Below are positions 5,943 through 52,205 of a DNA stretch of 64,000 nt, one piece after another. The translations under genes were made by a program, and so were the position numbers. Location: assembly GCA_016756835.1 (NCBI GenBank), contig JAESPE010000001.1:16732-80731 (forward strand), given 5' to 3'. Position 1 is the first letter of the stretch, and the number at the start of each line of letters is the position of its first letter. Source of the DNA: a gamma proteobacterium endosymbiont of Lamellibrachia anaximandri (lineage in GTDB: Bacteria; Pseudomonadota; Gammaproteobacteria; Chromatiales; Chromatiaceae). The notes below the pieces were generated by a model. The model was not told the DNA's origin and did no database searches. It saw nothing but the letters and a program-made list of their open reading frames with translations.

Positions 5943-6015
5943 TATCGACTCAGTAGTTCATAAAACTGTCATTTCGACCGCAGGGAGAAATGACAACCCC
6001 ATGAAGAACCATTTC

Positions 6016-6267
6016 TCACCCCCCCGTCACGGGAGGAAAGAAGGCGACTTCATCACCATCCTGGACTGGCGTATCGGTACCCGTCATCTCCTGATTGAGC
6101 GCCATCATCACCGTTTGATCGGCTGCAAAAACATCGGCCCAGATACCGCCCCGCTCTCGAAGGCGCATCAAAACCGCCCCCAGATCCGCAAGGCCCTCTG
6201 CCTCCATCTCCAGGGACGCTTCATCGAGCTGCTCCCGCAAACTGGCGAAAAAGAGCACCTTGATCAT
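6016..6267 (-). CDS. moaD: Molybdopterin synthase sulfur-carrier subunit
   Basis: MIKVLFFASLRE... ending in ...FFPPVTGG (C-terminal GG). ATGA overlap with the moeA stop. The longer ORF to 6357 is rejected. Confidence 0.86.
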   Translation of the reverse strand: MIKVLFFASLREQLDEASLEMEAEGLADLGAVLMRLRERGGIWADVFAADQTVMMALNQEMTGTDTPVQDGDEVAFFPPVTGG

Positions 6268-7514
6268 GACATCAGCTCGTGGAAAGAGAGAAACTGCACC
6301 GGATCGCCTTTTTTCAAACACTCCCGCTCCGGGATGATCGCCAGCCCGTTGGCCCATGCCACCGAACTCAAAACCCCTGATGAACGGCTTGGATAGAGTG
6401 TGACCACCGCTTCGCCGGATTCGTTGAGTTCCATCCGTGCGCGGGCATATTCACGGCGCTTGTCAGGCTTGTTCCAGTCGAAACCCGCCTTGGCGGTCAT
6501 AGGCGTGGGGATTGCTCCATCCTTCACACCCTGGGAGCGCAGGATATAGGGACGCGCAAACACATTGAAGGTAACGAACAGGGAGACCGGGTTGCCGGGT
6601 GTGCCGATGAAGGGCGTCTCGCCAATATGTCCGAAAGCCAGCGGTTTGCCGGGACGGATCGCGATCTTCCACAGATCCAGCGACCCGAGTTTCTCCACGG
6701 CAGGTTTGACGTGATCCTCTTCGCCGACGGAGACGCCACCTGAGGCGACCACCAGGTCGGCCTGTTCTGCAGCGCGTGCCAAGGCATCGCAGGTTGCCTC
6801 GAAGGTGTCCTCGATGATACCAAGTTGAATCACCTCGCAGCCCAGCACTGCCAGCATGCCACCGAGGGTATACTGGTTGGAGTTGTAGATCTGACCGGGA
6901 CCCAACTCACTGCCGGGCATCACAAGTTCATCACCGCTGGAGAAGACCGCAACCTTGAGCCGGCGAAAGACGGTCAGATCCGCGACTCCCACTGCGGCCG
7001 CAAGACCCAGATGCTGTGGACCCAGACGAGTACCGGCGGAGAGGATCTCTTCACCCTCTTTGATGTCCTCTCCGGCAAGACGGATGTTGGCACCGGCCTT
7101 GGGAGCATCGTTGACGACAACGTCATCGCCATCCTGCTCGCAAACCTCTTGAATCACCACCGCATCGGCACCTGACGGCACCGGCGCGCCGGTAAAGATA
7201 CGCGCCGCAGTACCCCGTTGCAGCGGCTCCCCGGTAGCCCCCGCCGGGATGCGCTGGGAGACCGGCAGGCGGGTGGAGTCATCCTGCAGATCAGCAGTAT
7301 TAACCGCATACCCGTCCATCGCACTATTATCCCAGGGCGGTACCGTCACCAGACTCGCCACTGGCTCGGCCAGCACCCGCCCCAAGGCATCCTCTGTTGC
7401 AACCTGTTCCTTCTCGGTCACGGAATGAACACGCGCCAGCAGGAAGTCGAGTGCCTCTTCAATGGGTTTCAGCGCAGGTCCGCTGTGGTGGGATCCGCAG
7501 TCACATCCACTCAT
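6264..7514 (-). CDS. moeA: Molybdopterin molybdenumtransferase
   Basis: 416 aa. SAMDGYAV, GANIRLAGEDI, SGGVSVGEEDH and PGNPVS motifs. Confidence 0.92.
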   Translation of the reverse strand: MSGCDCGSHHSGPALKPIEEALDFLLARVHSVTEKEQVATEDALGRVLAEPVASLVTVPPWDNSAMDGYAVNTADLQDDSTRLPVSQRIPAGATGEPLQRGTAARIFTGAPVPSGADAVVIQEVCEQDGDDVVVNDAPKAGANIRLAGEDIKEGEEILSAGTRLGPQHLGLAAAVGVADLTVFRRLKVAVFSSGDELVMPGSELGPGQIYNSNQYTLGGMLAVLGCEVIQLGIIEDTFEATCDALARAAEQADLVVASGGVSVGEEDHVKPAVEKLGSLDLWKIAIRPGKPLAFGHIGETPFIGTPGNPVSLFVTFNVFARPYILRSQGVKDGAIPTPMTAKAGFDWNKPDKRREYARARMELNESGEAVVTLYPSRSSGVLSSVAWANGLAIIPERECLKKGDPVQFLSFHELMS

Positions 7515-9086: not shown

Positions 9087-9265
9087 AGGGGCAAGGTTGG
9101 AGAGGTAAAAGGTTAAAGGAGGTGGTGCCAACGGATTGGTCGCACGCTGTCGTTACTACGTTTAGGCGCTGAAAGACCTACTATGGGCTTGATGCCTGAT
9201 TCAAACAAATATTTAATTTGTTAGCCTTTAGCCTTTAGCCTTTAACCTTTTACCTTTCACCTATC
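9087..9265. repeat. Inverted heptamer arrays (AGGnnnn left, nnnnCCT right) around a ~119-bp core
   Basis: GGTAAAAGGTTAAAGG (9104-9119) is exactly complementary to CCTTTAACCTTTTACC (9239-9254). On the right arm, CCT recurs every 7 nt at 9225, 9232, 9239, 9246, 9253 and 9260. Confidence 0.75.
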
Positions 9266-10706
9266 CTTTCCAAGCTAAATCCAGATCCCGGGCGGCCCGC
9301 ACGTCATCAAGCCGTCTCACCGGCAGATCATGGGGGGCAGACTTCACCTTCTCAGGATCGTTCTGCGCCTCCTGCAGTATGGTTGTCATAATATCCACGA
9401 AGCGATCCAGCTCATCCTGCGCCTCGGTTTCGGTCGGCTCGATCAACAGGCACTCAGGCACCAACAGGGGAAAGTAGGTGGTGGGCGCATGCACACCGAA
9501 ATCGAGCAGCCGCTTGGCAAAGTCCATGGTATTGACGCCCAGCTCACGGGCCTGCCGCTTCAGGGTAAGAATAAATTCATGACTGGCGCGCCGCTGCGGA
9601 TAAGCGGCATCGAAACCAACGTCGGTAAGACGTTTCAGCAGATAGTTGGCGTTGAGGGTGGAGAACTCCGCCACCCGAGGCATGCCGTCGCGTCCTAACA
9701 AACGCGCATAGATATAGGCCCGCAGCAACACGCCTGCATTGCCGGCGAAGGCAGATAGCCGCCCAATACTCTCTGGCCGGTTATCTTCGGTCAGCCAGAC
9801 ATAACCCGCACCATCCTGTGCCACCATCGGCACCGGCAGATAGGGTTCCAGCCGCTCGCTCACGCCCACCGGACCGGCACCAGGGCCACCGCCACCGTGT
9901 GGCGTGGAGAAAGTCTTGTGCAGGTTCATGTGGATGACATCGAATCCCATATCACCAGGACGCACCTTACCGAGGATGGCATTGAGGTTGGCACCATCAT
10001 AATAGAGCAGCCCGCCAGCCTCATGGACCAAACCGGCGATCTCTTTGATTCGACGCTCGAACACGCCCACGGTGGATGGGTTGGTGAGCATAATGCCTGC
10101 GGTCTGCGGTCCCAAAACACCTTTCAGTGCCTCGACATCGATATCACCGTCCGCACCGGTGGGGATCTCCCGCACCTTGTAACCGCACATCACCGCCGAG
10201 GCGGGATTGGTGCCGTGGGCCGCGTCCGGCGCCAGAATCTCGTTGCGGGCGTCATCGCCCCTGGCATCGTGATAGGCGCGGATCATCGCCACCCCGGCGA
10301 ACTCCCCCTGGGCGCCTGCTGCAGGAGAGAGTGAGACCGCAGACATACCGGTCGCCTCTTTGAGCATCTCCTGCAGATCGTACAGGCAACCCATGAAACC
10401 CTGGCTGTGGGTCTCCGGTGCCAAAGGGTGGCGCGCAAGGAAACCGGGCAGCGAGGCAAGGCTGTTGCTGGCCCGTGGGTTGTACTTCATGGTGCAGGAG
10501 CCCAGCGGGTAGAAATGGGTGTCGATGGAGAAGTTCTTCTGCGAAAGCTGGGTGTAGTGACGCACCACCTGCATCTCGGAGACCTCGGGCATAGACGCTG
10601 ACTGACGGCGGCGGAATTGTTGCGGGAGTCCATCCAGGTCAGTCTCTTGCAGCGGTGCCTGGGCAGTTGCGCGACGGCCCGCACGGCTTTTTTCAAAGAT
10701 CAACAT
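9261..10706 (-). CDS. gcvPB: Glycine dehydrogenase (decarboxylating) subunit 2
   Basis: 481 aa. The PLP-lysine context [16 protein letters not shown] is characteristic. Confidence 0.95.
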
Positions 10707-18010: not shown

Positions 18011-19240
18011 TTAAGATCTGTCCCAATCGCGCTGCGCCAGCTTAGGCAACTCCCCTACCATCCCCATCGCCCGACGTACCACGATATGCTTGAGCGGACC
18101 TGAATGGTCCACCAGACTCAACCCCAGGTTGCGAGCCAACTTGAGGGGCGATACTTCGTTGCTGAAGAAACGTTTGAAAAAATCCATGGCGCCGAGCATG
18201 CCCATGTTCGCCCCTTTACGCGCCCGTTCATAACGGCGCAGGGTAGCCAGCGAACCGATTTGACGTCCAGCCTGCCTGGCCTCAATCAACACCTCCGCCA
18301 ATTGTGCCGCATCGAGAAAGCCGAGATTCACACCCTGTCCAGCCAGAGGATGGATAGCGTGGGCGGCATCCCCCACCAGGGCCAGCCCCTCGCGAATATA
18401 GGTCTCGGCATGTCCCAGACGCAGGGGGAATGCAGCCCTTGGTCCCACCTCCAGCACCTCTCCCAGATTTTGCTCGCTGGCCTGGGTCAGCTCCCGGCAG
18501 AAGTCGGCATCGCCCAGCGCCATCAACTCCCTGGCCAGCAGGGGTGAGGTCGACCAGACGATGGAGCAACGGCCGTCATCGATAGGCAGAAACGCCAGGG
18601 GACCGGTGGGCATGAAACGCTGCCAGGCGGTGTTCTGATGATGCAAGACGGGGCGCACGGTGGCGACGATGGCGTGCTGATCATAGTCCCAACCACGGGT
18701 GCCGATCGCCGCCATCCTGCGGATCAGGGAATCCCGCCCGTCCGCGCCCACTACCAATTTCGCCTGCAGAGAGGTGCCGTCCTTCAGTCTCACCGAAGGT
18801 GTCGGTCCCATTTCGAGGTCAGCCACTTCAGCCGGACAGAGCCGGGTGACACTGTCATAGGTTGCCAGCCGCTCCCAGAGCGCCAGCAGGGTGACCCTGT
18901 TCTCCACGATATGGCCGAGATTGGACTCTCCGACGTCGTGACAGCTGAAATGGATACTGCCGTTGCCCCCCGCGTCCCAAACATGCATGTCGGTATAGAG
19001 GGAGACGCGTTTTTCGCACATGCGATCCCAGGCGCCCAGGTTTTCCAGCACTTGCTGGGAGGCCCGCGTAAGGGCGGAGACCCGCAGATCAACCTCATCA
19101 TCCGGCCAGTCTGTTTGCGGCTCACGCAACTCCAGTACACAGACATCGAAACCGGCATCGGCCATGGCGCAACCGAGGGCGCTGCCCACCATGCCGCCAC
19201 CCACGACGATCAGATCAAAGCTGTCTCGTTGTTCAGACAA
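18011..19240 (-). CDS. ubiI: FAD-dependent ubiquinone-biosynthesis hydroxylase (UbiI/VisC family)
   Basis: DLIVVGGGMVGSALG Rossmann motif and the GDAAHAIHPLAGQG motif. Lies downstream of ubiH as in E. coli. Confidence 0.82.
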   Translation of the reverse strand: MSEQRDSFDLIVVGGGMVGSALGCAMADAGFDVCVLELREPQTDWPDDEVDLRVSALTRASQQVLENLGAWDRMCEKRVSLYTDMHVWDAGGNGSIHFSCHDVGESNLGHIVENRVTLLALWERLATYDSVTRLCPAEVADLEMGPTPSVRLKDGTSLQAKLVVGADGRDSLIRRMAAIGTRGWDYDQHAIVATVRPVLHHQNTAWQRFMPTGPLAFLPIDDGRCSIVWSTSPLLARELMALGDADFCRELTQASEQNLGEVLEVGPRAAFPLRLGHAETYIREGLALVGDAAHAIHPLAGQGVNLGFLDAAQLAEVLIEARQAGRQIGSLATLRRYERARKGANMGMLGAMDFFKRFFSNEVSPLKLARNLGLSLVDHSGPLKHIVVRRAMGMVGELPKLAQRDWDRS

Positions 19241-24114: not shown

Positions 24115-24588
24115 ATGGCGAAGAAAAAAACCGCCAAAAAGAAGGCTGCTGTAAAGCGAAAAGTTACCACCACAAAAAGAGTAGCTGCCAAGAAAAAAGC
24201 ATCTACCAGGAAAAAAGCGGCGACTAAAAAGAAAGTCACAAAGAAAAAGGCAGTCACTAAGAAGAAGGTTGCTGCCAAAAAGAAGACAGTGAAAAAGAGG
24301 GCCGCCAAGAAAAAGGTTGCTGCCAAGAAGACAGTGAAAAAGAGAGCGGCCAAGAAAAAGGTTGCTGCCAAAAAGAAGACAGTGAAAAAGAGAGCGACCA
24401 AGAAAAAGGTTGCTGCCAAAAAGAAGACAGTGAAAAAGAGAGCGGCCAAGAAAAAGGTTGCTGCCAAAAAGAAGACGGCGAAAAAGAGAGCCGCCAAGAA
24501 GAAAGTCTCTGCAAAAAAGAAGACAGTGAAAAAGAGAGCAGCTCGGCCGCGCAAGGTCACACCGCGCAAAAAGGTCACCCAAAAATAG
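24115..24588 (+). CDS. Lys/Ala-rich histone H1-like (AlgP-like) nucleoid protein
   Basis: 157 aa, almost entirely K/A/V/T/R repeats (AAKKKVAAKKKTVKKR). GGAGGAC lies upstream of the ATG. Confidence 0.75.
   Translation: MAKKKTAKKKAAVKRKVTTTKRVAAKKKASTRKKAATKKKVTKKKAVTKKKVAAKKKTVKKRAAKKKVAAKKTVKKRAAKKKVAAKKKTVKKRATKKKVAAKKKTVKKRAAKKKVAAKKKTAKKRAAKKKVSAKKKTVKKRAARPRKVTPRKKVTQK
24267..24545 (+). repeat. In-frame 48-bp tandem repeat (~5.8 copies, one 45-bp copy) inside the Lys-rich gene
   Basis: GGTTGCTGCCAAAAAGAAGACAGTGAAAAAGAGAGCGGCCAAGAAAAA recurs at 24267, 24315, 24360, 24408 and 24456, with a partial copy at 24504. Confidence 0.9.
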
Positions 24589-24618: not shown

Positions 24619-26139
24619 TCAATCAACACCTGCAAAGAGTTGATATGCCGGATTATCGCTCTCTTCCCAAAAGGTATAACCCAGGTCTTTCAGCATTTTC
24701 CTGAAATCACCTTTTTCACCCGATGGAATCTGTATACCCATTAGTACACGTCCATAGGCTGAACCGTGATTTCGATAGTGGAACAAACTTATGTTCCAGC
24801 GTTTGCCGATATTGGCCAGAAAATAGAGTAATGCACCAGGGCGCTCGGGAAATTCAAACCGCACCAGCATCTCGTTTTCAACACCCTTGGCATGTCCACC
24901 CACCATGTAGCGGATGTGCAGTTTTGCAGTTTCATTGTCGGTCATGTCGACAATGGGATAGGATTTCTTCTCGAACCTGGCAACCAACTTCTCCCTCTCC
25001 CGATCCCCGTCGCTCAATTCCACACCGACGAATATCTGTGCGGTTCGGTCACTGGCATAACGATAGTTGAACTCAGTGATACTGCGTTTGCCTATTACTT
25101 TGCAAAACCGATGGAAGCTTCCCGGCTGCTCAGGAATCTGCACCGCAAAAAGCGCCTCTCTGCGTTCGCCGAATTCCGCTCGCTCGGCAACATGGCGCAG
25201 ACGGTCAAAATTGATGTTGGCACCGCTCTCTATGGCGATCAGGTCAGTCCCTTTGATGCCTTCACGCTTCACATATTTTTTCAGACCCGCAACAGACAAG
25301 GCACCAGCAGGCTCAGCAATTGTTCTCGTGTCGTCAAAAACGTCCTTTATCGCTGCACATATCTCGTCTGCATTGACCAGAATCACCTCGTCCACAACCT
25401 TGCGGGCCACACGAAAACTCTCTTTTCCTATCTGCCTGACCGCCACGCCATCCGCAAATATTCCCACCTGCTTAAGTTTGACCCTGCGCCCAGCCTCCAT
25501 CGCCCGATAAAGCGTCGGCGCGTCATCCGGCTCAACACCGATAATCTTCACCTCGGGCCGTACATATTTGACATAGGATGCAATCCCTGCAATCAACCCC
25601 CCACCACCCACCGGAACAAAGATTGCCATCGGCGGCTCCGGATGCTGCCGCAACAACTCCATCCCGATCGTGCCCTGACCTGCAATCACCTCCGGATCAT
25701 CAAAGGGATGAATGTAGGTCAATCCCTTCTCCTCCGCCAACTTCTGGGAGTGCGCGTAGGCTTCGTCATAGGAATCCCCGGCCAATACGATTTTTGCTCC
25801 AAGGTTACGCACTGACTGCACTTTGATGGGCGGCGTCGTACGCGGCATGACAATAAGCGCCGGAATCTTCAGCTTGCGGGCCGACAGAGCAACACCCTGG
25901 GCATGATTACCAGCCGATGCCGCGATGATCCCCTTCTCCCTCGCCTCCGGCGAAAGACTCTGGATCTTGTTATAGGCACCTCTCAATTTAAATGAGAAGA
26001 CCGGCTGCAGATCCTCCCGCTTCAAGAAGACCCGGTTCTCCATCCTCGCAGAGAGCAGCGGCGCAAGATCCAGAGGCGTCTCATGTGCCACATCGTAGAC
26101 CCGCGCGCGGAGGATTTTTTCTATATATTGTTGTGGCAT
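24619..26139 (-). CDS. ilvA: Biosynthetic threonine ammonia-lyase
   Basis: The PLP-lysine motif FSFKLRGAYN, GGGGLIAG, and two C-terminal ACT-like regulatory repeats. The start is at MPQQYIEK. Confidence 0.92.
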   Translation of the reverse strand: MPQQYIEKILRARVYDVAHETPLDLAPLLSARMENRVFLKREDLQPVFSFKLRGAYNKIQSLSPEAREKGIIAASAGNHAQGVALSARKLKIPALIVMPRTTPPIKVQSVRNLGAKIVLAGDSYDEAYAHSQKLAEEKGLTYIHPFDDPEVIAGQGTIGMELLRQHPEPPMAIFVPVGGGGLIAGIASYVKYVRPEVKIIGVEPDDAPTLYRAMEAGRRVKLKQVGIFADGVAVRQIGKESFRVARKVVDEVILVNADEICAAIKDVFDDTRTIAEPAGALSVAGLKKYVKREGIKGTDLIAIESGANINFDRLRHVAERAEFGERREALFAVQIPEQPGSFHRFCKVIGKRSITEFNYRYASDRTAQIFVGVELSDGDREREKLVARFEKKSYPIVDMTDNETAKLHIRYMVGGHAKGVENEMLVRFEFPERPGALLYFLANIGKRWNISLFHYRNHGSAYGRVLMGIQIPSGEKGDFRKMLKDLGYTFWEESDNPAYQLFAGVD

Positions 26140-26300
26140 TTTTCTATTCCAATGTGAGATTGCCGCACCTGACATCAAAGAGGCGCATCGGTATGATAAC
26201 CCCCAAAATCCGATAAACGTTAGATAATATCGACAAAGCAGTCAGCCGGGCTTCCAATCCGAATCCCACAACTTGCAGTCGTTAGTTAAGGAGTTAGCGC

Positions 26301-26960
26301 ATGAATGCAGACGACATGAAAAAAATGGCCGCAGAGGCCGCACTGGAGTATGTCGATGGCGGCATCGTCGGTGTAGGCACCGGCTCAACGGTCAACCATT
26401 TCATCGACTACCTTGCCACCATCAAGCATAAAATCGATGGCGCGGTCTCAAGCTCCGAAGTTTCGACCGAACGTATGAAGAGCCACGGCATTCCGGTAAT
26501 GGATCTTAACGCTGCGGGTGAACTCGACATCTATGTGGATGGCGCAGATGAGGCGGATCACAATCTGGCCCTCATCAAGGGCGGTGGTGGCGCGTTGACC
26601 CGCGAGAAGATCGTCGCAGGTGCCAGCAGAAAGTTTGTCTGTATCGCAGACGGCAGTAAACTGGTGGACATACTGGGCAAGTACCCCCTGCCGGTGGAGG
26701 TCATCCCCATGGCCCGCAGTCATGTGGCCCGCCAACTGGTCAAGCTTGGTGGCACCCCGGTCTGGCGCGAAGATTTCATTACCGACAACGGAAATGTCAT
26801 CCTGGATGTTCACAATCTGGAGATCATGAAACCCATCGAGATGGAGAACCGCATCAACGCCATCGCCGGCGTGGTCACCAACGGTCTCTTTGCCATGCGC
26901 GGTGCTGACGTATTGATCCTTGGCACCGGGGATGGCGTCAAGACAGTGCTGCCCAAATAA
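26301..26960 (+). CDS. rpiA: Ribose-5-phosphate isomerase A
   Basis: 219 aa. [14 protein letters not shown] and [12 protein letters not shown] motifs. Confidence 0.93.
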
Positions 26961-26962
26961 GA

Positions 26963-27020
26963 GGACCGAGGTTGATAGGGCCGAGGGTCGGAATCTTGAT
27001 CCTCGGCCCTTTATTTTGGG
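26963..27020. repeat. Gene-less GGCCC-type palindromic element (mini copy 1)
   Basis: GGACCGAGGTTGATAG, then AGGGCCGAGG (26977-26986), a 14-nt loop, CCTCGGCCCT (27001-27010) and TTTATTTT. Confidence 0.65.
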
Positions 27021-27022
27021 GC

Positions 27023-27048
27023 AAAAAAAACGGGGCCCGAAGGCCCCG
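27023..27048 (-). terminator. Rho-independent terminator of the porin gene
   Basis: The minus strand reads CGGGGCC-ttcg-GGCCCCG followed by T8. Confidence 0.82.
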
Positions 27049-27073
27049 TCTTCAACCACTCACTAAGTAAGAC

Positions 27074-28042
27074 TTAGAAGTTGTGGCTCAGCTGCAGAGA
27101 GAGAACGCTGCTGTCGGTGCTTGGTGCACCAGCTGCGTCGTCTACGTCACGAGCATTGTAGAGAACCTGTGCATCGGTACGCTTGCTGAAGCTGAACTGG
27201 TAGCCGATAGCATAAGTATCGAAGTCGGTACCTGCAATGTTGTCGAAGTCAGCAGAACCGTACATGCCCTTGATGCGGTGCATGCCCATGTCGTATGCGC
27301 CAGACAGCTGGTAGGTCTTCTTGTCGTTATTGGCAGTACCACCAATGTCGGAACGCGTCTCGTAAACACCGGTCACGCTGATGTTGTTCCAACCCAAAAC
27401 ACCGCCGCCGATGCGGAACTGAGTCTCGTTCTCAGCAGGTGCGCCGAAGTTATCTTCGTCAAGCTGCTCGTAAGCGATGGCACCGTAGAAAGGGCCGTTG
27501 CTGTACATACCAGCGATGGAGTAAGCATCCTGGAAGTCTTCGGTGCCCAGAGTCTGAACGACTGCACCAGCAAGGGTGAGACCGGAGAAAGAGGGAGAGA
27601 TGTATGCGATGGCGCCGTCAACGCGACGATCCATGAACAGGTTGGTGTGGTTGCCGGCCTGATCGTAGTCAGCTGCGGTATCTGCGAACAGATCCAGCTT
27701 ACCGGTGGACATCTTCAGAGGGGTGTCGTGACGACCGGCAACAGCGGTACCGAAACCACCAGCCAAGCCGACGAAAGCGTTACGACCAGACCAATTGAAT
27801 GCAGAACCTGCAGTCATGCCGAACTCCATCTGGTAGATGGCTTTCAGACCGTTGCCCAGATCTTCGGAACCCTTGATACCAAGACGGGAAGCCTGGTCCT
27901 GCATGCCCCAAGCATCGATACCAGCGTCCTGAGACCACTTGTCAGAAGCAACACGGACCTTACCGTAGATGGTGGAATCAGCCATGGCAGCAGCGGGAGC
28001 AACCAGAGCAGCAGCAATTGCGAAAGAAAGGATTTTCTTCAT
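27074..28042 (-). CDS. Outer-membrane general porin (Gram-negative porin family)
   Basis: Signal peptide MKKILSFAIAAALVAPAAAMA, beta-strand-alternating sequence, and C-terminal ...LQLSHNF. The ORF extension to 28204 is rejected. Confidence 0.85.
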   Translation of the reverse strand: MKKILSFAIAAALVAPAAAMADSTIYGKVRVASDKWSQDAGIDAWGMQDQASRLGIKGSEDLGNGLKAIYQMEFGMTAGSAFNWSGRNAFVGLAGGFGTAVAGRHDTPLKMSTGKLDLFADTAADYDQAGNHTNLFMDRRVDGAIAYISPSFSGLTLAGAVVQTLGTEDFQDAYSIAGMYSNGPFYGAIAYEQLDEDNFGAPAENETQFRIGGGVLGWNNISVTGVYETRSDIGGTANNDKKTYQLSGAYDMGMHRIKGMYGSADFDNIAGTDFDTYAIGYQFSFSKRTDAQVLYNARDVDDAAGAPSTDSSVLSLQLSHNF

Positions 28043-28330
28043 TTTTAAAAAACTCCAATGAGTTAGGAATAAATTCTGTACGTTCGCTGACAATATTAGA
28101 TAAGCCATCTCTGTATTGCAAGTCTTTTTTTGTAAAAAAATCACATGTGGTAATTTTGTTGCAAAAAAAGCACACCCAGCCTGTAGCTGCCAATTAAAAT
28201 TCAATAATTCCGTGAGTTACCATCATTTCCTCGAATTCCCAATATAATTTAACCAACAACATTTAACCATCTGCGGGTAAATTAATGTCTCAGGCACTCA
28301 AAATACAGGAGTAGTGACGTAAAGAAAACA

Positions 28331-28386
28331 GGACCGAGGTTGATAGAGCCAAGGATCGCCACCTTATCCCTTGGCCCTTGGCCCTA
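28331..28386. repeat. Gene-less GGCCC-type palindromic element (mini copy 2)
   Basis: The same 16-mer GGACCGAGGTTGATAG, then AGCCAAGG (28347-28354), a loop, and CCTTGGC CCTTGGC CCT (28369-28385). Confidence 0.65.
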
Positions 28387-28390
28387 AAAT

Positions 28391-28416
28391 AAAAAACCCG
28401 CCGAAGCGGGTTTTTT
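28391..28416. terminator. Bidirectional rho-independent terminator (ends the rplM-rpsI-tRNA-Gln unit)
   Basis: AAAAAA-CCCGC-cgaa-GCGGG-TTTTTT. Confidence 0.82.
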
Positions 28417-28420
28417 ATTT

Positions 28421-28494
28421 TGGCTGGGGATAGAGGACTCGAACCTCTACAAACGGAGTCAGAGTCCGTTGTCCTGCCATTAGACGAATCCCCA
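28421..28494 (-). tRNA. tRNA-Gln (anticodon CUG), CCA encoded
   Basis: Hand-folded cloverleaf. Acceptor stem TGGGGAT/ATCCCCA, anticodon stem ACGGA/TCCGT with loop CTCTGAC, T-arm AGAGG-TTCGAGT-CCTCT, and 3' GCCA. Resembles E. coli tRNA-Gln. Confidence 0.92.
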
Positions 28495-28502
28495 ATTGTT
28501 CT

Positions 28503-28961
28503 TAGGGCCGAGTTTGATAGGGCCTAGGGCCGAGGATTGCGGCCTTAACCCTTTCCATCGGCGCTTCGCTCAATGTGCGCGATTAAGCCATATATCATTT
28601 TAGAAATCTGTATTACTTCTTCAGATTTTTCAAGGCCTATTTTACGATCGATCAATCCTGACTCGATGCCGATCAGAATTTGTGTCCAGGCTTCATAGCT
28701 GGAAGCCTTTGCAATCCGAAGGAAGTGGATGCGCTCTTTGACTGATTCCCGCCCATAACCTTCAGCTATGTTTGAGGCTATGGAAAGCGCCGATCTTCCC
28801 AACTGATCCCTGAAGCCAAAATTGGTACAGCCACCAATCAGTTTGTAAATATCTGCTGAGAGCCGACAAGCCCTTTTCCATGCATCGAGGTTTACCAAGG
28901 CATCCATGCCCACCCCTCGGCCCTCGGCCCTTAAAACCTCGGCCCTGCTTTTATCGGCCCT
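28503..28961 (-). mobile_element. Putative insertion cassette: four-helix-bundle gene bounded by inverted GGCCC-heptamer arrays
   Basis: The left end is TAGGGCCGAGTTTGATAGGGCCTAGGGCCGAGG. The right end is CCTCGGCCCTCGGCCCTTAAAACCTCGGCCCT...ATCGGCCCT. It fills the rpsI/tRNA-Gln spacer. Mobility is inferred, not shown. Confidence 0.4.
28545..28907 (-). CDS. Four-helix-bundle protein (23S rRNA intervening-sequence protein / Avd-like family)
   Basis: 120 aa. FGFRDQLGRSALSIASNIAEGYGR and IHFLRIAKASSYE are typical of this family. About 46% G+C by hand count over 28561-28910. Confidence 0.83.
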   Translation of the reverse strand: MDALVNLDAWKRACRLSADIYKLIGGCTNFGFRDQLGRSALSIASNIAEGYGRESVKERIHFLRIAKASSYEAWTQILIGIESGLIDRKIGLEKSEEVIQISKMIYGLIAHIERSADGKG

Positions 28962-28965
28962 GTTC

Positions 28966-29355
28966 TTAACGTTTGGAGAATTGAGGACGCTTGCGCGCCT
29001 TGTGCAGACCGACTTTCTTACGCTCGACCTCACGGGCGTCACGTGTCAGGAATCCGGCTTTGCGCAGACCAAGATGAAGCGACTCGTCGAATAGATCAAG
29101 GGCACGCGCTATGCCATGACGAATGGCGCCCGCCTGGCCGGTGGTGCCACCGCCTTTTACGGTGACCTTGATATCAACCTTGTCGAGTGTTGCGGTGACG
29201 TCCAGCGGTTGACGCACGACCATACGCGCTGTTTCACGACCAAAATATTCGTCCAGGGGACGATTATTGACAACGATGCTGCCGCTGCCGGAGGTCAGGA
29301 AGACCCGGGCTGCCGAGCTTTTGCGGCGGCCGGTGCTGTAATGAATATCTGCCAT
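28966..29355 (-). CDS. rpsI: 30S ribosomal protein S9
   Basis: 129 aa. [15 protein letters not shown] and C-terminal [11 protein letters not shown]. Confidence 0.96.
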
Positions 29356-29380
29356 CGGTTTTACCTGATGAAAATGGTGA

Positions 29381-29809
29381 TCAGATGTCCAGCGGCTGAG
29401 GCTGCTGGGCCTGATGAGTGTGTTCGGGACCTACAAAGACGCGCAGCTTCTTGAACATGGCGCGACCCAGAGGATTCTTAGGCATCATGCCCTTGACGGC
29501 ATGCTGAATCACCCGCTCCGGCGCCTTGTCCAGCAGCTTTTCCAGGCTGATCGACTTAAGGTTGCCTATATAACCGGTGTGATGGTGATATATCTTGCCC
29601 GACATCTTGTTGCCGGTCACATGGATCTTCTCCGCGTTGATTACAACGATGTAATCCCCGGTGTCCACATGAGGGGTATATTCAGGCTTATGCTTACCGC
29701 GCAGGCGGCGAGCAATTTCAGTGGAGAGGCGACCGAGCGTTTTGTCGGTTGCGTCCACGAGGTACCAGGTGCGGCGTACCTCAGCCGGTTTTGCACTAAC
29801 GGTTGTCAT
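29381..29809 (-). CDS. rplM: 50S ribosomal protein L13
   Basis: [52 protein letters not shown] aligns closely with E. coli L13. Confidence 0.96.
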
Positions 29810-29857
29810 ACCGAGTCGCTCCAATGGAGAACTATTATCGTCCGAAAAAGACGGCGA

Positions 29858-29886
29858 ATAGTACCGGATGATCCGAAAGGAAACAA
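29858..29886 (-). promoter_or_regulatory. Candidate proximal sigma-70 promoter of rplM (TTGTTT-17-TACTAT)
   Basis: Hexamers read on the minus strand with a 17-nt spacer. The match to consensus is only moderate. Confidence 0.3.
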
Positions 29887-29905
29887 GACCTCATTCGCCG
29901 CCGGC

Positions 29906-30003
29906 AAAAAAAAAGCGCAACGGAGGACGTTGCGCTTAAATATAACCACCATTTTAGGAGGATGGAGGAGTACTGACACTTGCCATCAGCAGGCAATCAG
30001 TAT
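29906..30003 (-). ncRNA. Candidate ~98-nt small RNA or attenuating leader upstream of rplM
   Basis: Bounded by a near-consensus promoter (30010-30038) and the terminator GCGCAACG-tcctc-CGTTGCGC + T9 (29935-29906). Contains the CUCCUCCAUCCUCCU tract. Confidence 0.45.
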
Positions 30004-30009
30004 GTTAGA

Positions 30010-30038
30010 ATTATCTGATATAATTATTGGTATGTCAA
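30010..30038 (-). promoter_or_regulatory. Near-consensus sigma-70 promoter (TTGACA-17-GATAAT)
   Basis: The minus strand reads TTGACA (30038-30033), a 17-nt spacer, then GATAAT (30015-30010). Confidence 0.55.
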
Positions 30039-30139
30039 GCTCAGCGAGCAACCCGGCTAACATCTCTTTGGACTTTCCCCTCCGGGTCTGAAAAAATTGC
30101 GCCCTTTCCCGACAACACAATAAACCTCAATAAGAAGAG

Positions 30140-31108
30140 ATGCTGATCGACTCACTTGCCATTCTCGTTGGACTTGCCATCCTGGTTTGGGGCGCCAATC
30201 GCTTTGTCACCGGCGCCGCCGCCCTGGCCAGCAACCTGGGTGTTTCAGCGATGCTGATCGGACTCACCATTGTCGGCTTCGGCACATCCGCACCGGAGAT
30301 ACTGGTCTCGGTCGTCTCCTCGCTTGATGGCAATCCCGGCCTCGCAATCGGTAACGCACTGGGTTCGAATATCGCCAACATCGGCCTGATCCTTGGCACT
30401 ACCGCGCTTATCGTTCCTCTGACGGTCCACTCCAGTGTATTAAAGAGGGAGTACCCCCTGCTGCTCGGCGTGACCGGCCTCAGCCTGCTACTCATGCTGG
30501 ACGGAGAACTGAACCAGCTTGACGGCACGATCCTGATTGTCGTCCTGGTCGCCGTGCTCGGCTGGATGATCCGCGTCGCTAAAACCGGCTCTCCAACCGA
30601 CCCGATAGCAGACGAGTTCGATGCCGAAATCCCTCACGACATGCCCACCCCTCAAGCGATCTTCTGGCTGATACTCGGGCTTATCTGCCTGCTGATAAGT
30701 TCGCGCATGCTGGTCTGGGGGGCAGTCAATATCGCCACCACTTTCGGCATCAGCGATCTGGTTATCGGCCTGACCATCGTCGCCCTGGGCACCAGCCTGC
30801 CCGAACTGGCGGCAAGCATTGCCAGCGCCCTCAAGGGGGAGGACGATCTTGCCATCGGCAATATCATCGGTTCCAACCTATATAATCTGTTGGCGGTCCT
30901 GAGCCTGCCGGGACTGATTGCACCGGGAGTCTTTTCCGAAGCCGCACTCTACCGGGACCAACCCATGATGATCGGGCTGACCCTTGCCCTCTTTGCCATG
31001 GGCTATGGCTTTGGGAAACTAAAGGGGCAGATCAACCGCATTGAAGGTTTTTTGCTGCTGCTCGCTTTTATCGGCTACCAGACACTGCTGTTTTTTACGT
31101 TAAGCTAA
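30140..31108 (+). CDS. yrbG: Calcium/sodium antiporter (YrbG family)
   Basis: 322 aa, ~10 TM. Duplicated alpha-repeat motifs GTSAPE and GTSLPEL. Synteny with kdsD. Confidence 0.88.
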   Translation: MLIDSLAILVGLAILVWGANRFVTGAAALASNLGVSAMLIGLTIVGFGTSAPEILVSVVSSLDGNPGLAIGNALGSNIANIGLILGTTALIVPLTVHSSVLKREYPLLLGVTGLSLLLMLDGELNQLDGTILIVVLVAVLGWMIRVAKTGSPTDPIADEFDAEIPHDMPTPQAIFWLILGLICLLISSRMLVWGAVNIATTFGISDLVIGLTIVALGTSLPELAASIASALKGEDDLAIGNIIGSNLYNLLAVLSLPGLIAPGVFSEAALYRDQPMMIGLTLALFAMGYGFGKLKGQINRIEGFLLLLAFIGYQTLLFFTLS

Positions 31109-31133
31109 GCCAATCACCCATTGAGGGGAATCA

Positions 31134-32132
31134 ATGAGACAAGGCAAACCGATCACCCCGGAAGAGGCCGGTAGACTCCGAAGCCTGGGACTGGCAGTGA
31201 TCGAAACCGAAGCTGCCGCCATCTCATCGCTGGCGGCACGCATCGACGACGATTTCGCCCGCGCCTGCAGCTATATGCTCGAGTGTCCCGGCCGCATAGT
31301 GGTAATCGGCATGGGAAAATCAGGACACATCGGCAGCAAGATCGCCGCCACCCTCGCCAGCACCGGCAGCCCCGCTTTTTTCGTCCATCCCGGTGAAGCC
31401 AGCCATGGCGATCTCGGTATGATCACCAGCGGCGATGTGGTGCTTGCACTCTCGAATTCAGGGGAGACCGGCGAACTGCTGACCATCCTGCCATTGATAA
31501 AACGCCTCGGCGTGCCGCTCATCAGCATGACCGGCAACCCAAGATCCACACTGGCGTGCGAAGCGGAAGTCAGCATCGATGTCAGCGTGGAGAAAGAGGC
31601 CTGTCCGCTGGGTCTCGCCCCCACCTCCAGTACAACCGCTGCACTGGTAATGGGTGACGCCATGGCGATCGCCCTGCTTGAGACGCGGGGTTTCACCGCC
31701 GAGGACTTCGCCCTCTCCCATCCCGGCGGCAGTCTAGGACGGCGTCTGCTGCTGCATATCGGTGATATCATGCACACCGGGGATGCGATTCCAAAGATCT
31801 CCGCCGATGCCAGCCTGAACGCAGCACTGATCGAGATGTCTTCCAAAAGCCTCGGCATGACCGCAGTCGTCGACGGGCAGGGAGATTTGGCAGGAATCTA
31901 TACCGACGGGGATCTGCGCCGCACCCTCGACCACAAAGTGAACATTCACGAAGCAGGTGTGTCGGAGGTGATGACCGTGAACTGTAAAACGGTGGTGCCG
32001 GAGATGCTCGCTGCCGAAGCTCTGCAGTTGATGGAAGAGAACAAGATCAGCGGCCTGCTGGTGGTAAACGGACGAGGTGAACTGGTCGGCGCATTCAACA
32101 TGCACGACCTGCTGCGCGCAGGCGTTATGTAA
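31134..32132 (+). CDS. kdsD: Arabinose-5-phosphate isomerase (KpsF/GutQ family; SIS + 2 CBS)
   Basis: VVIGMGKSGHIGSKIAATLASTGSPAFFVHPGEASHGDLG. Confidence 0.92.
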   Translation: MRQGKPITPEEAGRLRSLGLAVIETEAAAISSLAARIDDDFARACSYMLECPGRIVVIGMGKSGHIGSKIAATLASTGSPAFFVHPGEASHGDLGMITSGDVVLALSNSGETGELLTILPLIKRLGVPLISMTGNPRSTLACEAEVSIDVSVEKEACPLGLAPTSSTTAALVMGDAMAIALLETRGFTAEDFALSHPGGSLGRRLLLHIGDIMHTGDAIPKISADASLNAALIEMSSKSLGMTAVVDGQGDLAGIYTDGDLRRTLDHKVNIHEAGVSEVMTVNCKTVVPEMLAAEALQLMEENKISGLLVVNGRGELVGAFNMHDLLRAGVM

Positions 32133-32136
32133 AGGC

Positions 32137-32208
32137 AGGGTCAAGGGTAAGTTGTACCTCTTTTCCCTTCCTCGGCCCTTGGCCCTTGGCCCTAAAAATC
32201 TTGGCCCT
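32137..32208. repeat. GGCCC-type heptamer element in the kdsD-kdsC spacer (mini copy 3)
   Basis: AGGGTCA AGGGTAA (32137-32150) faces CCTCGGC CCTTGGC CCTTGGC CCT (32170-32193) and CTTGGCCCT (32200-32208). Confidence 0.6.
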
Positions 32209-32228
32209 AATAAAATCGGAGAGAGAAA

Positions 32229-32750
32229 GTGCAGGACATCCAGGAAAAGGCTCGCAACATCAAGCTGGTCATATTCGATGTCGACGGTGTGCTCACCGAC
32301 GGCAGTCTGTTCCTCGGCGATGACGGGCAGGAGTACAAGGCGTTCAACTCCCGGGATGGCCACGGTATGAAGATGCTGCAGGCCAGCGGTGTAGAGATCG
32401 GCATCATCACCGGCCGCTCCTCGGAAGTTGTGCGCATCCGCATGGAGAGCCTGGGGATCAAACACGTCCACCAGGGCAAGCTGGATAAACTGCCCACCTA
32501 TCTCCAGTTGCGGGATCAGCTCGGCCTGAGAGACGAAGAGGTCGCCTACGTGGGGGACGACGTGGTCGATCTACCCATCATGCGTCGCGTCGGTCTCGCC
32601 ATTGCGGTCAATGACGCCCACCCCTTCGTGCTTCAGCATGCCCACTGGCAAACCCCGCATGCGGGGGGCCGCAGCGCCGGGCGGGATGTCTGCGAACTAC
32701 TGATGGACGCCCAGGGCAATCTTCAGTCAGCGCTGGAAAGCTACCTTTAA
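32229..32750 (+). CDS. kdsC: 3-deoxy-D-manno-octulosonate 8-phosphate phosphatase
   Basis: GTG start. HAD motif IKLVIFDVDGVLTDG, and GDDVVDLP. Confidence 0.9.
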   Translation: MQDIQEKARNIKLVIFDVDGVLTDGSLFLGDDGQEYKAFNSRDGHGMKMLQASGVEIGIITGRSSEVVRIRMESLGIKHVHQGKLDKLPTYLQLRDQLGLRDEEVAYVGDDVVDLPIMRRVGLAIAVNDAHPFVLQHAHWQTPHAGGRSAGRDVCELLMDAQGNLQSALESYL

Positions 32751-32762
32751 GCCGTTACGCTG

Positions 32763-33326
32763 GTGAATCGTCATACGCTCTCCATCGTCCTGTTCACTGC
32801 CGCCATCGCGGGACTGAGTTGGTGGCTGGCCGAGATAACGGAACCGAAACAGCAGCGCCAGCAGGTCGCGGGACACCACCCCGACTACTACGCCGAAGAT
32901 CTCACGATCACCACCTACGGTGAGACAGGCAGCCCAAAACACCGCCTGGTAACGGAGCACCTGGTCCACTTCAGGGACGATGACAGCGCGGAATTGGAAC
33001 ATCCGCACCTGTGGATGTTCGATCCAGCCGCCCCGCCCTGGAAGCTGCGCGCCGAGCGGGCTCGTATCACCAACAATGGCGAAGACATCTTCCTTCCCGG
33101 CAAGGTAACCATTGACCGGGAGGAGCAGGGGAAAAACCGCCCCTATCACATCATCACCTTCGACCTGAAGGTACAACCCAAACTCTCCTACGCCGAAACC
33201 GATGGCGCATTCCGTCTCGACAGCCGCCGGGACTGGGTCACCTCCATCGGCATGCGGGGCTGGTTCAAAGAACCCGCCAGAATCAAACTACTATCCGAGG
33301 TACGAAGCCGTTATGAAACCCAATAA
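32763..33326 (+). CDS. lptC: LPS export system protein LptC
   Basis: 187 aa with a single N-terminal TM. Position between kdsC and lptA. GTG start. Confidence 0.82.
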   Translation: MNRHTLSIVLFTAAIAGLSWWLAEITEPKQQRQQVAGHHPDYYAEDLTITTYGETGSPKHRLVTEHLVHFRDDDSAELEHPHLWMFDPAAPPWKLRAERARITNNGEDIFLPGKVTIDREEQGKNRPYHIITFDLKVQPKLSYAETDGAFRLDSRRDWVTSIGMRGWFKEPARIKLLSEVRSRYETQ

Positions 33327-52105: not shown

Positions 52106-52205
52106 CACAGCAATCATGGTACGCAGGGCACAGCAATCATGGTACGCAGGGCACAGCAATCATGGTACGCAGGGCACAGCAATCATGGTACGCAGGGCAC
52201 AGCAA
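52106..52205. repeat. 23-bp perfect tandem repeat, about 4.3 copies
   Basis: CACAGCAATCATGGTACGCAGGG starts at 52106, 52129, 52152 and 52175, with a partial copy at 52198. Confidence 0.92.

Follow-up and report, generated by a model that had tools for sequence, protein, structure and literature searches.

An inverted heptamer bracket around a four-helix-bundle gene in the rplM-rpsI-tRNA-Gln(CTG) unit of a tubeworm endosymbiont

The window analysed here is a stretch of 64,000 nucleotides from a gamma proteobacterium endosymbiont of Lamellibrachia anaximandri (GenBank assembly GCA_016756835.1, contig JAESPE010000001.1, positions 16,732 to 80,731 of the forward strand). The spacer between rpsI and a tRNA-Gln(CTG) gene is filled by an open reading frame (ORF) for a four-helix-bundle (4HB) protein of the PF05635 family, bracketed by inverted arrays of 7-nt units. 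We find that this cassette is old, selected and mostly vertically inherited at the rpsI-tRNA-Gln site, and that such a heptamer bracket characterises the PF05635 family in several phyla. On balance, we lean towards reading the region as an anciently fixed, operon-embedded equivalent of the ORF-bearing intervening sequences (IVS) of 23S rRNA, located inside the rplM-rpsI-tRNA-Gln(CTG) unit, with a stem that would act as RNase III processing and translation-masking element. An earlier note on the same DNA saw an insertion cassette here; such a cassette need not be a recent arrival.

The bracketed gene and its predicted stem

Between 28391 and 29809 the minus strand reads rplM, rpsI (stop codon at 28966-28968) and, beginning 4 nt beyond, a 54-nt G-rich heptamer array, the 4HB ORF, a 41-nt C-rich array and, 9 nt past the latter, the 5' end of tRNA-Gln(CTG), followed by a terminator (Table 1). 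The earlier note had described a 120-aa ORF at 28545-28907 with two quoted motifs (one being FLRIAKASSYE), its position between the rpsI stop and the tRNA 5' end on the same strand, and inverted array strings at both ends, the right one 4 nt from the rpsI stop; all of these are present exactly as given. Its assignment of the protein to PF05635/TIGR02436 is borne out as well: matches score above the cut-offs for Pfam PF05635 (E 1.2e-26, 93.5 bits against 33.8), TIGR02436 (E 7.5e-28, 96.9 bits against 24) and the subfamily NF008912 (133.6 bits against 124). The AlphaFold2 monomer model (predicted local distance difference test score 96.2) consists of four long helices. Compared with Foldseek, it resembles 2gsc (XCC0516; template modelling (TM) score 0.83-0.91, root-mean-square deviation 1.1-1.2), 2rld (BT_0352; TM 0.64-0.87) and the Avd structure 4dwl (TM 0.72-0.84), even though sequence identity to Avd is only 11-14%. 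A homopentameric ring assembly is reported for XCC0516 (cited in PMC4990558).

The gene is under purifying selection, with a ratio of nonsynonymous to synonymous substitution rates (dN/dS) of 0.12-0.21 against close relatives. Its G+C content, put at about 46% in the earlier note and seen there as lower than that of its neighbours, measures 45.5%, whereas the window has 56.7% and rpsI 57.4%; at third codon positions (GC3) it is 45.5% against 59-67% in the adjoining genes. PADLOC and PHROGs scans gave no match, and a database look-up returned no record of the exact 120-aa sequence.

The module seems embedded in a single transcription unit. A scan revealed no terminator-like site on the minus strand over 28417-28965, and neither a promoter-like nor a terminator-like site within the module. 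The first terminator is the hairpin with T-run at 28391-28416, as had been noted before; it is plain by eye and absent from the list of the scanner, which probably missed it because the stem runs into A/T runs. No rRNA is found near the module: Rfam over 26000-33000 gives tRNA only.

The minimum free energy (MFE) fold of the minus strand over 28495-28970 has the two arrays as its closing stem, at -174.4 kcal/mol (z = -4.2; 0/100 shuffles as stable). The arrays are thus predicted to pair as an interrupted stem of ~30 bp closing over the whole ORF. This predicted stem takes in the start codon and the likely Shine-Dalgarno sequence, a GAGG that the 5' arm holds 7 nt before the ATG. In the MFE folds of 33 loci with the same rpsI-4HB-tRNA-Gln order (see below), the 5' and 3' flanks are joined by a median of 25 long-range pairs, at least 15 in 29 of the loci, against a mean of 8.9 in controls with shuffled 3' flanks. 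By itself, the heptamer GGGCCGA shows no enrichment in the window, where it has 17 matches and 14.9 are expected. GGGCCRAGG is enriched: 11 matches are observed against 2.0 expected, a number reached in 0/100 shuffles, and all 11 fall in 26978-32192, i.e. within 5.2 kb around the 4HB gene.

The same site in relatives and the bracket across the family

The nearest relatives (comparison loci are given L numbers) are seep-tubeworm endosymbionts in or near Sedimenticolaceae with 91-93% DNA identity, among them the symbionts of Escarpia laminata, L. anaximandri and L. barhami as well as a Sedimenticolaceae metagenome-assembled genome (MAG); ribosomal protein S9 of the window is 98% identical to that of an L. 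anaximandri symbiont. All close relatives carry the gene and its arrays at the rpsI-tRNA-Gln site. In those examined, CAA stands in place of the 4HB stop codon, so that the ORF extends by 7 codons into the 3' array; one close lineage is short of 16 nt of the 5' array, where the rpsI stop codon is provided by the repeat. When the ORF is compared with its counterpart in L002 (window 28545-28907 against 6001-6384), 41 of the 45 nucleotide differences lie in the 5' half and 4 in the 3' half, a mosaic that suggests recombination inside the 4HB gene.

More distant orthologues (60-70% identical) are found in a gammaproteobacterial MAG, a Chromatiaceae MAG and Sedimenticola thiotaurini, all with the order rplM-rpsI-4HB-tRNA-Gln(CTG)-porin and inverted heptamer arrays. 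The unit can vary between orthologues, the gammaproteobacterial MAG having TAGGTGC/TAGGAAC upstream and GCACCTA downstream, and array copy number varies even between the near-identical contigs L013 and L014. A metagenome scan with a family alignment added 80 further loci, and the counts below refer to 86 distinct ORFs. Upstream of the 4HB gene, rpsI is present at 36-105 nt in 39/86 loci; in 33/86 it is accompanied by tRNA-Gln(CTG) 13-161 nt downstream. The latter 33 loci, whose orthologues have arrays as well, span RpsI p-distances up to 0.40 (down to 60% identity), and their 4HB and RpsI distances correlate (Mantel r = 0.61, 0/2000 permutations). The G+C content of the 4HB gene is below that of rpsI in 33/33 loci while its GC3 tracks that of the host (r = 0.83). 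Low G+C, as remarked on in the earlier note, is therefore a family property and no mark of recent import.

Comparison of the spacer also reveals empty sites. In Ca. Endoriftia persephone (RpsI 83% identical) rpsI is followed after 40 nt by tRNA-Gln, and in Ca. Thiodiazotropha (RpsI 84-88% identical) after 24 nt, in both cases with neither gene nor arrays. Across a broad clade, gene and arrays thus occur at this site jointly or not at all. Given that more distant lineages carry the module, its loss in Endoriftia and Thiodiazotropha is a simpler reading than re-insertion at the same site, and the ancestral unit would then be rplM-rpsI-tRNA-Gln with the module inside. In Ca. Thiodiazotropha (L106 2989-3260; L108) a repeated segment past tRNA-Gln comprises a second tRNA 3' end, its terminator and ~60 nt more, and looks like an integration scar.

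Identical 5-mers at lags of 7/14/21/28 occur at 59/46/32/23 per kb in the flanks of the 86 distinct 4HB ORFs against 3.6/2.6/3.0/1.5 in the rest of the loci. If only intergenic gaps are considered, there are 53 lag-7 matches per kb beside the 4HB gene (15 elsewhere), and at least 3 such matches are found in 55% of the adjacent gaps (16% of the others). At least 8 inverted 7-mers are common to both flanks in 51% of 71 loci, against 2.9% of 731 control placements. The association of arrays with other 4HB genes that the earlier note proposed to test is hence borne out, as period-7 enrichment and as inverted 7-mers, with a heptamer that differs by lineage. Examples of units are AGTAGCA, GGGGCGA, AAGGCGA, GGCTGAG, GGGTAGT, GGATTCA, TAGGTTC and TAACTGA; AG is present in 88% of the distinct upstream units and CT in 96% of the downstream ones. 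Each lineage has a heptamer of its own, with both arms changing in concert. Paralogous 4HB genes on one contig bear differing heptamers (L097, L102), TAACTGA being among the units that flank the genes of these two loci. In a sample of only 4 informative loci, units near the gene and far from it differ.

Beyond family members in gammaproteobacterial metagenomes, the bracket extends to cyanobacterial plasmids (7/7 genes, 30-40% identical, e.g. between cas6/cas4 or parA-like/parB) and to viral contigs (7/8). On the Anabaena sp. 90 plasmid pANA02 (L114), a bracketed 4HB gene is located between cas6 and cas4 of a CRISPR-cas operon, with ~12 GGTGACA/GGGAACA units upstream and (CTGTCAC)x4 downstream. 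A leader motif, ACTTCAAACTT, is seen within the bracket of several plasmid and viral loci (L109, L110, L116-L119), usually twice and just 5' of an ATGAGT start. Arrays have also been recorded in earlier literature. For X. campestris, a GGGAATC x4 array is listed at a distance of 6 nt from accB, where it overlaps the start annotated for XCC0516 (supplement of PMC4692102), and the Coxiella 23S IVS has 2-3 GACAGAT heptamers ahead of the start of its S23p ORF, in a strain-variable copy number (PMC4990558); for both, the array on record is upstream only. A term search of PMC4692102 (Rehm), PMC4679880 (MacGregor) and PMC2700814 (Geobacter genome) did not retrieve a link between heptamer arrays and PF05635 genes, and inverted arrays as family-wide companion of PF05635 were not found in the searchable literature.

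Neighbouring hairpins and other features of the window

Table 1. Features of the module and its surroundings (window coordinates)
Feature	Position	Strand	Evidence and remarks
rplM (ribosomal protein L13)	29381-29809	minus	ORF and translation; Pfam Ribosomal_L13 on syntenic L001, L002 genes; first gene of transcription unit
rpsI (ribosomal protein S9)	28966-29355	minus	ORF; Pfam Ribosomal_S9 on syntenic genes (L001, L002)
5' arm, G-rich heptamer array AGGGCCG-ATAAAAGC-AGGGCCG-AGGTTTTA-AGGGCCG-AGGGCCG-AGGGGTGGGC	28908-28961	minus	Sequence; pairing in MFE fold; conserved in relatives
4HB gene, 120 aa, PF05635/TIGR02436/NF008912	28545-28907	minus	Hidden Markov models, AlphaFold2, Foldseek, dN/dS
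3' arm, C-rich inverted array GGCCGCAAT-CCTCGGC-CCTAGGC-CCTATCAAA-CTCGGCCCT	28504-28544	minus	Sequence; MFE fold; relatives
tRNA-Gln, anticodon CTG	28421-28494	minus	ARAGORN; Rfam tRNA 61.5 bits
Intrinsic terminator of unit, AAAAAACCCGC-TTCG-GCGGGTTTTTT	28391-28416	minus	Read from sequence; conserved in L001, L002
Solo hairpin B, cassette-like arms without ORF	28330-28385	minus	Directly past tRNA-Gln terminator; sequence, fold, relatives
Solo hairpin A, AGGGCCGAGG...CCTCGGCCCTATCAACCTCGGTCCT	26962-27010	minus	Directly past porin terminator; fold -28.6 kcal/mol, z = -4.4
Solo heptamer element D, (GGGCCAA)n/(CCTTGGC)n	32137-32210		Between two plus-strand genes; fold not significant
Heptamer hairpin of differing unit, AAGGNNA	9100-9270	minus	Between two minus-strand genes; loop without ORF

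Several ORF-less elements surround the cassette (Table 1). The copy of hairpin B in L004 (L. anaximandri symbiont) equals the 5' arm of the cassette (45/53, by eye) joined to its 3' end (44/52), the latter including the last three ORF codons, and therefore looks like a cassette from which the ORF was deleted. From these joined ends we infer that the ORF-less hairpins near the cassette may be its deletion derivatives. In 2/5 related genomes (Escarpia symbiont L001/L011; L. barhami symbiont L010) hairpin B is inverted at the same position past the tRNA-Gln terminator.

Hairpin A is an insertion hotspot in relatives: the Escarpia symbiont (L001 7889-8979) has a Y1_Tnp gene with its own GGGGACAGATTTATTTTT repeats between two duplicated hairpin A copies, and the L. 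barhami symbiont (L006/L010) has another insertion there. The Y1_Tnp gene, located beside the porin, was considered as mobiliser of the module in the manner of a REP-associated tyrosine transposase (RAYT; REP, repetitive extragenic palindromic), and was rejected since it has its own repeats, is itself absent from the window and merely inserted into hairpin A; tblastn found no counterpart in the window (best E 0.054). The genes around element D match SIS/CBS-domain and HAD-hydrolase genes called in L001. The minus-strand hairpin at 9100-9270 consists of (AAGGNNA)x6, a loop of ~115 nt and CCTCCTTTAACCTTTTACC, with a perfect stem of 17 bp.

The end motif CCGAGKTTGATAG, for which the earlier note proposed a genome scan, does not behave as a genome-wide terminus: its opposite-strand counterpart at the right end, GGCYCTATCAAMCTCGGYCC, occurs at this locus only, in four tubeworm-symbiont genomes. 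A genome-wide REP family built on the right-end motif was likewise discarded, as the six other matching stretches (Endozoicomonas, Yersinia and others) have no heptamer arrays and look like chance matches.

A second 4HB gene or remnant, hinted at by weak tblastn matches at 18470-19054, was dismissed: the matches lie within two ORFs of ~400 aa that resemble FAD-dependent monooxygenases (judged from translations), leaving no second copy in the window. The rplM leader (29907-30038, minus) has a strong promoter-like TTGACA-17-GATAAT at 30038-30010 and, downstream of it, a hairpin with T-run at 29937-29913, which may be an attenuator or an L13 leader; Rfam matches in this leader are sub-threshold only (ncS54, Betaproteobacteria toxic sRNA). 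Two tandem repeats were seen further away. One, of 48 nt (24259-24539; x5.9, 91% matches), appears to encode a Lys/Ala-rich repeat, judged by its consensus unit and blastn self-hits; the other is a perfect intergenic 23-nt repeat (CACAGCAATCATGGTACGCAGGG x4.3) at 52106-52205, followed by a terminator-like hairpin.

Interpretation and likeness to known systems

If the region is indeed an operon-embedded equivalent of the 23S IVS, one RNA would be transcribed from the rplM promoter through the terminator past the tRNA. Before the 3' arm is transcribed, the purine-rich, Shine-Dalgarno-like 5' arm would be free and the 4HB ORF translatable; once the 3' arm exists, the stem would form, mask the start site and offer a double-stranded RNase III substrate. 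Cuts in this stem and by RNase P at the 5' end of the tRNA would then yield three separate RNAs: the rplM-rpsI mRNA, a short 4HB mRNA and the pre-tRNA. Production of the 4HB protein would thereby be coupled to synthesis of the translation apparatus and held low.

A number of observations weigh against this interpretation. The duplex energy of the flanks is alike in sense and antisense (sense more stable in 46/80 loci, p = 0.31), so that an RNA-level stem is not distinguished from a DNA-level palindrome. Clean compensatory changes in the arms were not found among five close relatives, the arms carrying 1-2 mismatches. In part of the family (L066, L078, L097, L102) the arrays are direct or not complementary, and the members in L089 and L100 lie between two separate hairpins, not inside one. 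Processing of the predicted stem by RNase III is proposed by analogy with the IVS only, and the mechanism offers no reason for a period of seven. Moreover, the equivalent ORF in Coxiella is thought to be unexpressed and decaying (PMC4990558), unlike that in the window. The purine-rich arm being always upstream was considered as a sign of ORF orientation and dropped: a hairpin that begins with purines does so whichever strand is read, and the regularity therefore shows only that all hairpins form one class.

A first alternative, close to the view of the earlier note, is a recently inserted, non-autonomous mobile cassette that targets sites just past stop codons in highly transcribed units. This seems decidedly unlikely at the present site. 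The module comes and goes as a unit with clean empty sites, and bracketed genes occupy many unrelated spacers (cas6/cas4, parA/parB, a site 6 nt after accB) in co-orientation with their neighbours (55 to 19 upstream, 46 to 8 downstream), at a median gap of 66 nt to the co-oriented upstream gene and often few nt past its stop codon. They occur in viral contigs, solo copies lie nearby (one inverted between strains), the 4HB ORF is mosaic (41/45 differences from L002 in the 5' half) and in the window the module stands between two copies of a 7-nt direct repeat, TAAGAAC. Against a recent landing, however, the gene is orthologous at the same site in at least 33 lineages, down to 60% RpsI identity, where it co-diverges with rpsI (33/86 loci), and GC3 follows the host. 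TAAGAAC, tried as a target-site duplication, is not conserved in the four closest relatives (L001, L002, L004, L010) and resembles the A-rich spacer units of the array. The specific end motif is confined to one locus, and a mobility gene was not found nearby: in agreement with the earlier note, no transposase, reverse transcriptase or integrase is present among Pfam-annotated neighbours (syntenic L001, L002), and tblastn of the window for Y1_Tnp is negative. The mobile-cassette view is thus right on the discrete, modular nature of the element and, at the level of the family, on past mobility, and is contradicted for this site.

It might also be argued that the arrays are simple repeats of a generic kind that arose by slippage, or else REP-like, and that they build up in any permissive spacer of these genomes, their adjacency to 4HB genes being incidental. 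Heptamer arrays do occur in 16% of the other intergenic gaps of the same loci and at three other gene-less sites in the window besides hairpin B; copy number differs between L013 and the near-identical L014, and intergenic heptamer arrays abound in Xanthomonas and Nostoc (PMC4692102), Beggiatoaceae (PMC4679880) and Geobacter (PMC2700814). Nonetheless, we consider this explanation very unlikely: arrays are 3.5-fold denser in gaps beside the 4HB gene (55% against 16% with at least 3 matches), upstream and downstream arrays are reverse-complementary in 51% of loci against 2.9% of controls, arrays are gone along with the gene at empty sites, and 4HB paralogues on one contig (L097, L102) have differing heptamers. 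A G-quadruplex in the G-rich 5' arm, repressing translation over the ribosome-binding site instead of a long stem, seems highly improbable. The arm does contain a G3N4G3N4G4N1G3 tract and, immediately 5' of the ATG, GGGCCGAGGGCCGAGGGGTGGG, and GGGAATC and GGGGAYT heptamer repeats form G-quadruplexes in vitro (Rehm et al., PMC4692102). Many heptamers of the family are devoid of G-tracts (AAGTAGC, AGTTTTA, GCGTTCA, CTATAAG, TAACTGA), however, and quadruplex formation is therefore not the common principle, while possible for this locus.

A further proposal concerns the protein, and we rate it as rather unlikely on present grounds. PF05635 proteins could be trans-acting partners of the heptamer arrays, with a ring pentamer whose subunits would each read a single A-G-containing heptamer of single-stranded RNA or DNA, similar to TRAP on spaced GAG/UAG triplets. 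If true, every such gene would make up, along with the arrays around it, a self-contained cis/trans module of an autoregulatory or a selfish kind. Its regulon, or its non-autonomous derivatives, would be the ORF-less arrays: the short tandemly repeated repetitive (STRR) sequences of cyanobacteria, TAACTGA in Beggiatoaceae, GGGAATC in Xanthomonas and the hairpins A, B and D. Binding of this kind would explain why arrays travel with the gene, why paralogues have specific heptamers, why an AG/CT core is kept and why taxa with many heptamer arrays would seem to have many PF05635 genes as well. The support is circumstantial, consisting of the paralogue-specific units, the AG/CT core and the presence of Avd within the ribonucleoprotein 8ubb. 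In any case the family gains a concrete candidate substrate, i.e. its own repeats, and Sedimenticola is a cultivable test case for the module.

Among known systems, Avd, the accessory protein of diversity-generating retroelements, has the same fold as the 4HB protein and is a ribonucleoprotein subunit in 8ubb. A retroelement reverse transcriptase is absent among Pfam-called genes within 6 kb on either side (syntenic L001, L002; template/variable repeat pairs were not searched for), as is an integron integrase among the Pfam-annotated neighbours of the same loci (no attC model was run). A miniature inverted-repeat transposable element or another transposon-derived element would have terminal inverted repeats and a target-site duplication; here, inverted arrays are present, and the TAAGAAC direct repeat is seen around the module in the window and not in L001, L002, L004 and L010. 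With REP sequences, bacterial interspersed mosaic elements and RAYTs the module has in common short imperfect palindromes past stop codons or terminators, a gene between inverted copies, solo copies elsewhere and strain-to-strain inversion. The gene flanked in those systems, however, is a Y1 transposase, whereas here it is a 4HB protein gene and the window has no Y1; REPs are single palindromes of high copy number, whereas the module has arrays of 7-nt units and its motif GGCYCTATCAAMCTCGGYCC is low-copy (four tubeworm-symbiont genomes).

A more distant likeness is found in phages. In MS2 the ribosome-binding site of the maturation gene is masked by long-range pairing and only nascent RNA is translated, and the early RNA of phage T7 has RNase III processing hairpins between cistrons. 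Sequestration of a start site by distant pairing and double-stranded stems between cistrons are both proposed here, which is an analogy only; MS2 and T7 have no tandem heptamers.

Intergenic heptamer repeats (cyanobacterial STRR; GGGAATC/GGGGAYT in Xanthomonas and Nostoc, Rehm 2015; TAACTGA in Beggiatoaceae, MacGregor 2015; GGGACCG in Geobacter) share with the module a period of 7 in the vicinity of a start or stop codon, units that are particular to a lineage and a copy number that varies. Convergent (inverted) pairs, as in the module, are frequent in Xanthomonas (70 in Xcc). Unlike the module, most arrays in those genomes have no adjoining PF05635 gene.

The ORF-bearing 23S rRNA IVS (the helix-45 IVS of Coxiella burnetii with S23p; also Leptospira, Brucella and Xanthomonas) has the protein family in common with the module. 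Both have a sense ORF inside a long inverted-repeat stem (in the window, and with at least 15 long-range pairs in 29/33 orthologous loci), both sit in a heavily transcribed gene or unit of the translation apparatus, and both have tandem heptamers directly 5' of the start, in a copy number that differs among strains. The inverted-repeat stem of the Coxiella IVS is cut by RNase III (PMC4990558). The differences are equally clear: the IVS sits in helix 25/45 of the 23S gene, whereas the module sits in a ribosomal protein mRNA/tRNA spacer, so that fragmentation of rRNA does not arise; in Coxiella the ORF is thought silent and decaying, whereas that in the window is intact, with a plausible Shine-Dalgarno sequence and purifying selection; and IVS occurrence is sporadic, against a site conserved over a deep clade. 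Overall, three things that were described separately and left unexplained, namely the 23S IVS ORFs (S23p), the stand-alone Avd-like 4HB genes common in cyanobacteria, Bacteroidota and proteobacteria, and the intergenic heptamer repeats (STRR, TAACTGA, GGGAATC), come together in a single architecture, an ORF with inverted heptamer arrays on its two sides, which can occupy rRNA, a ribosomal protein/tRNA operon, and CRISPR-cas, partition and biosynthetic operons.

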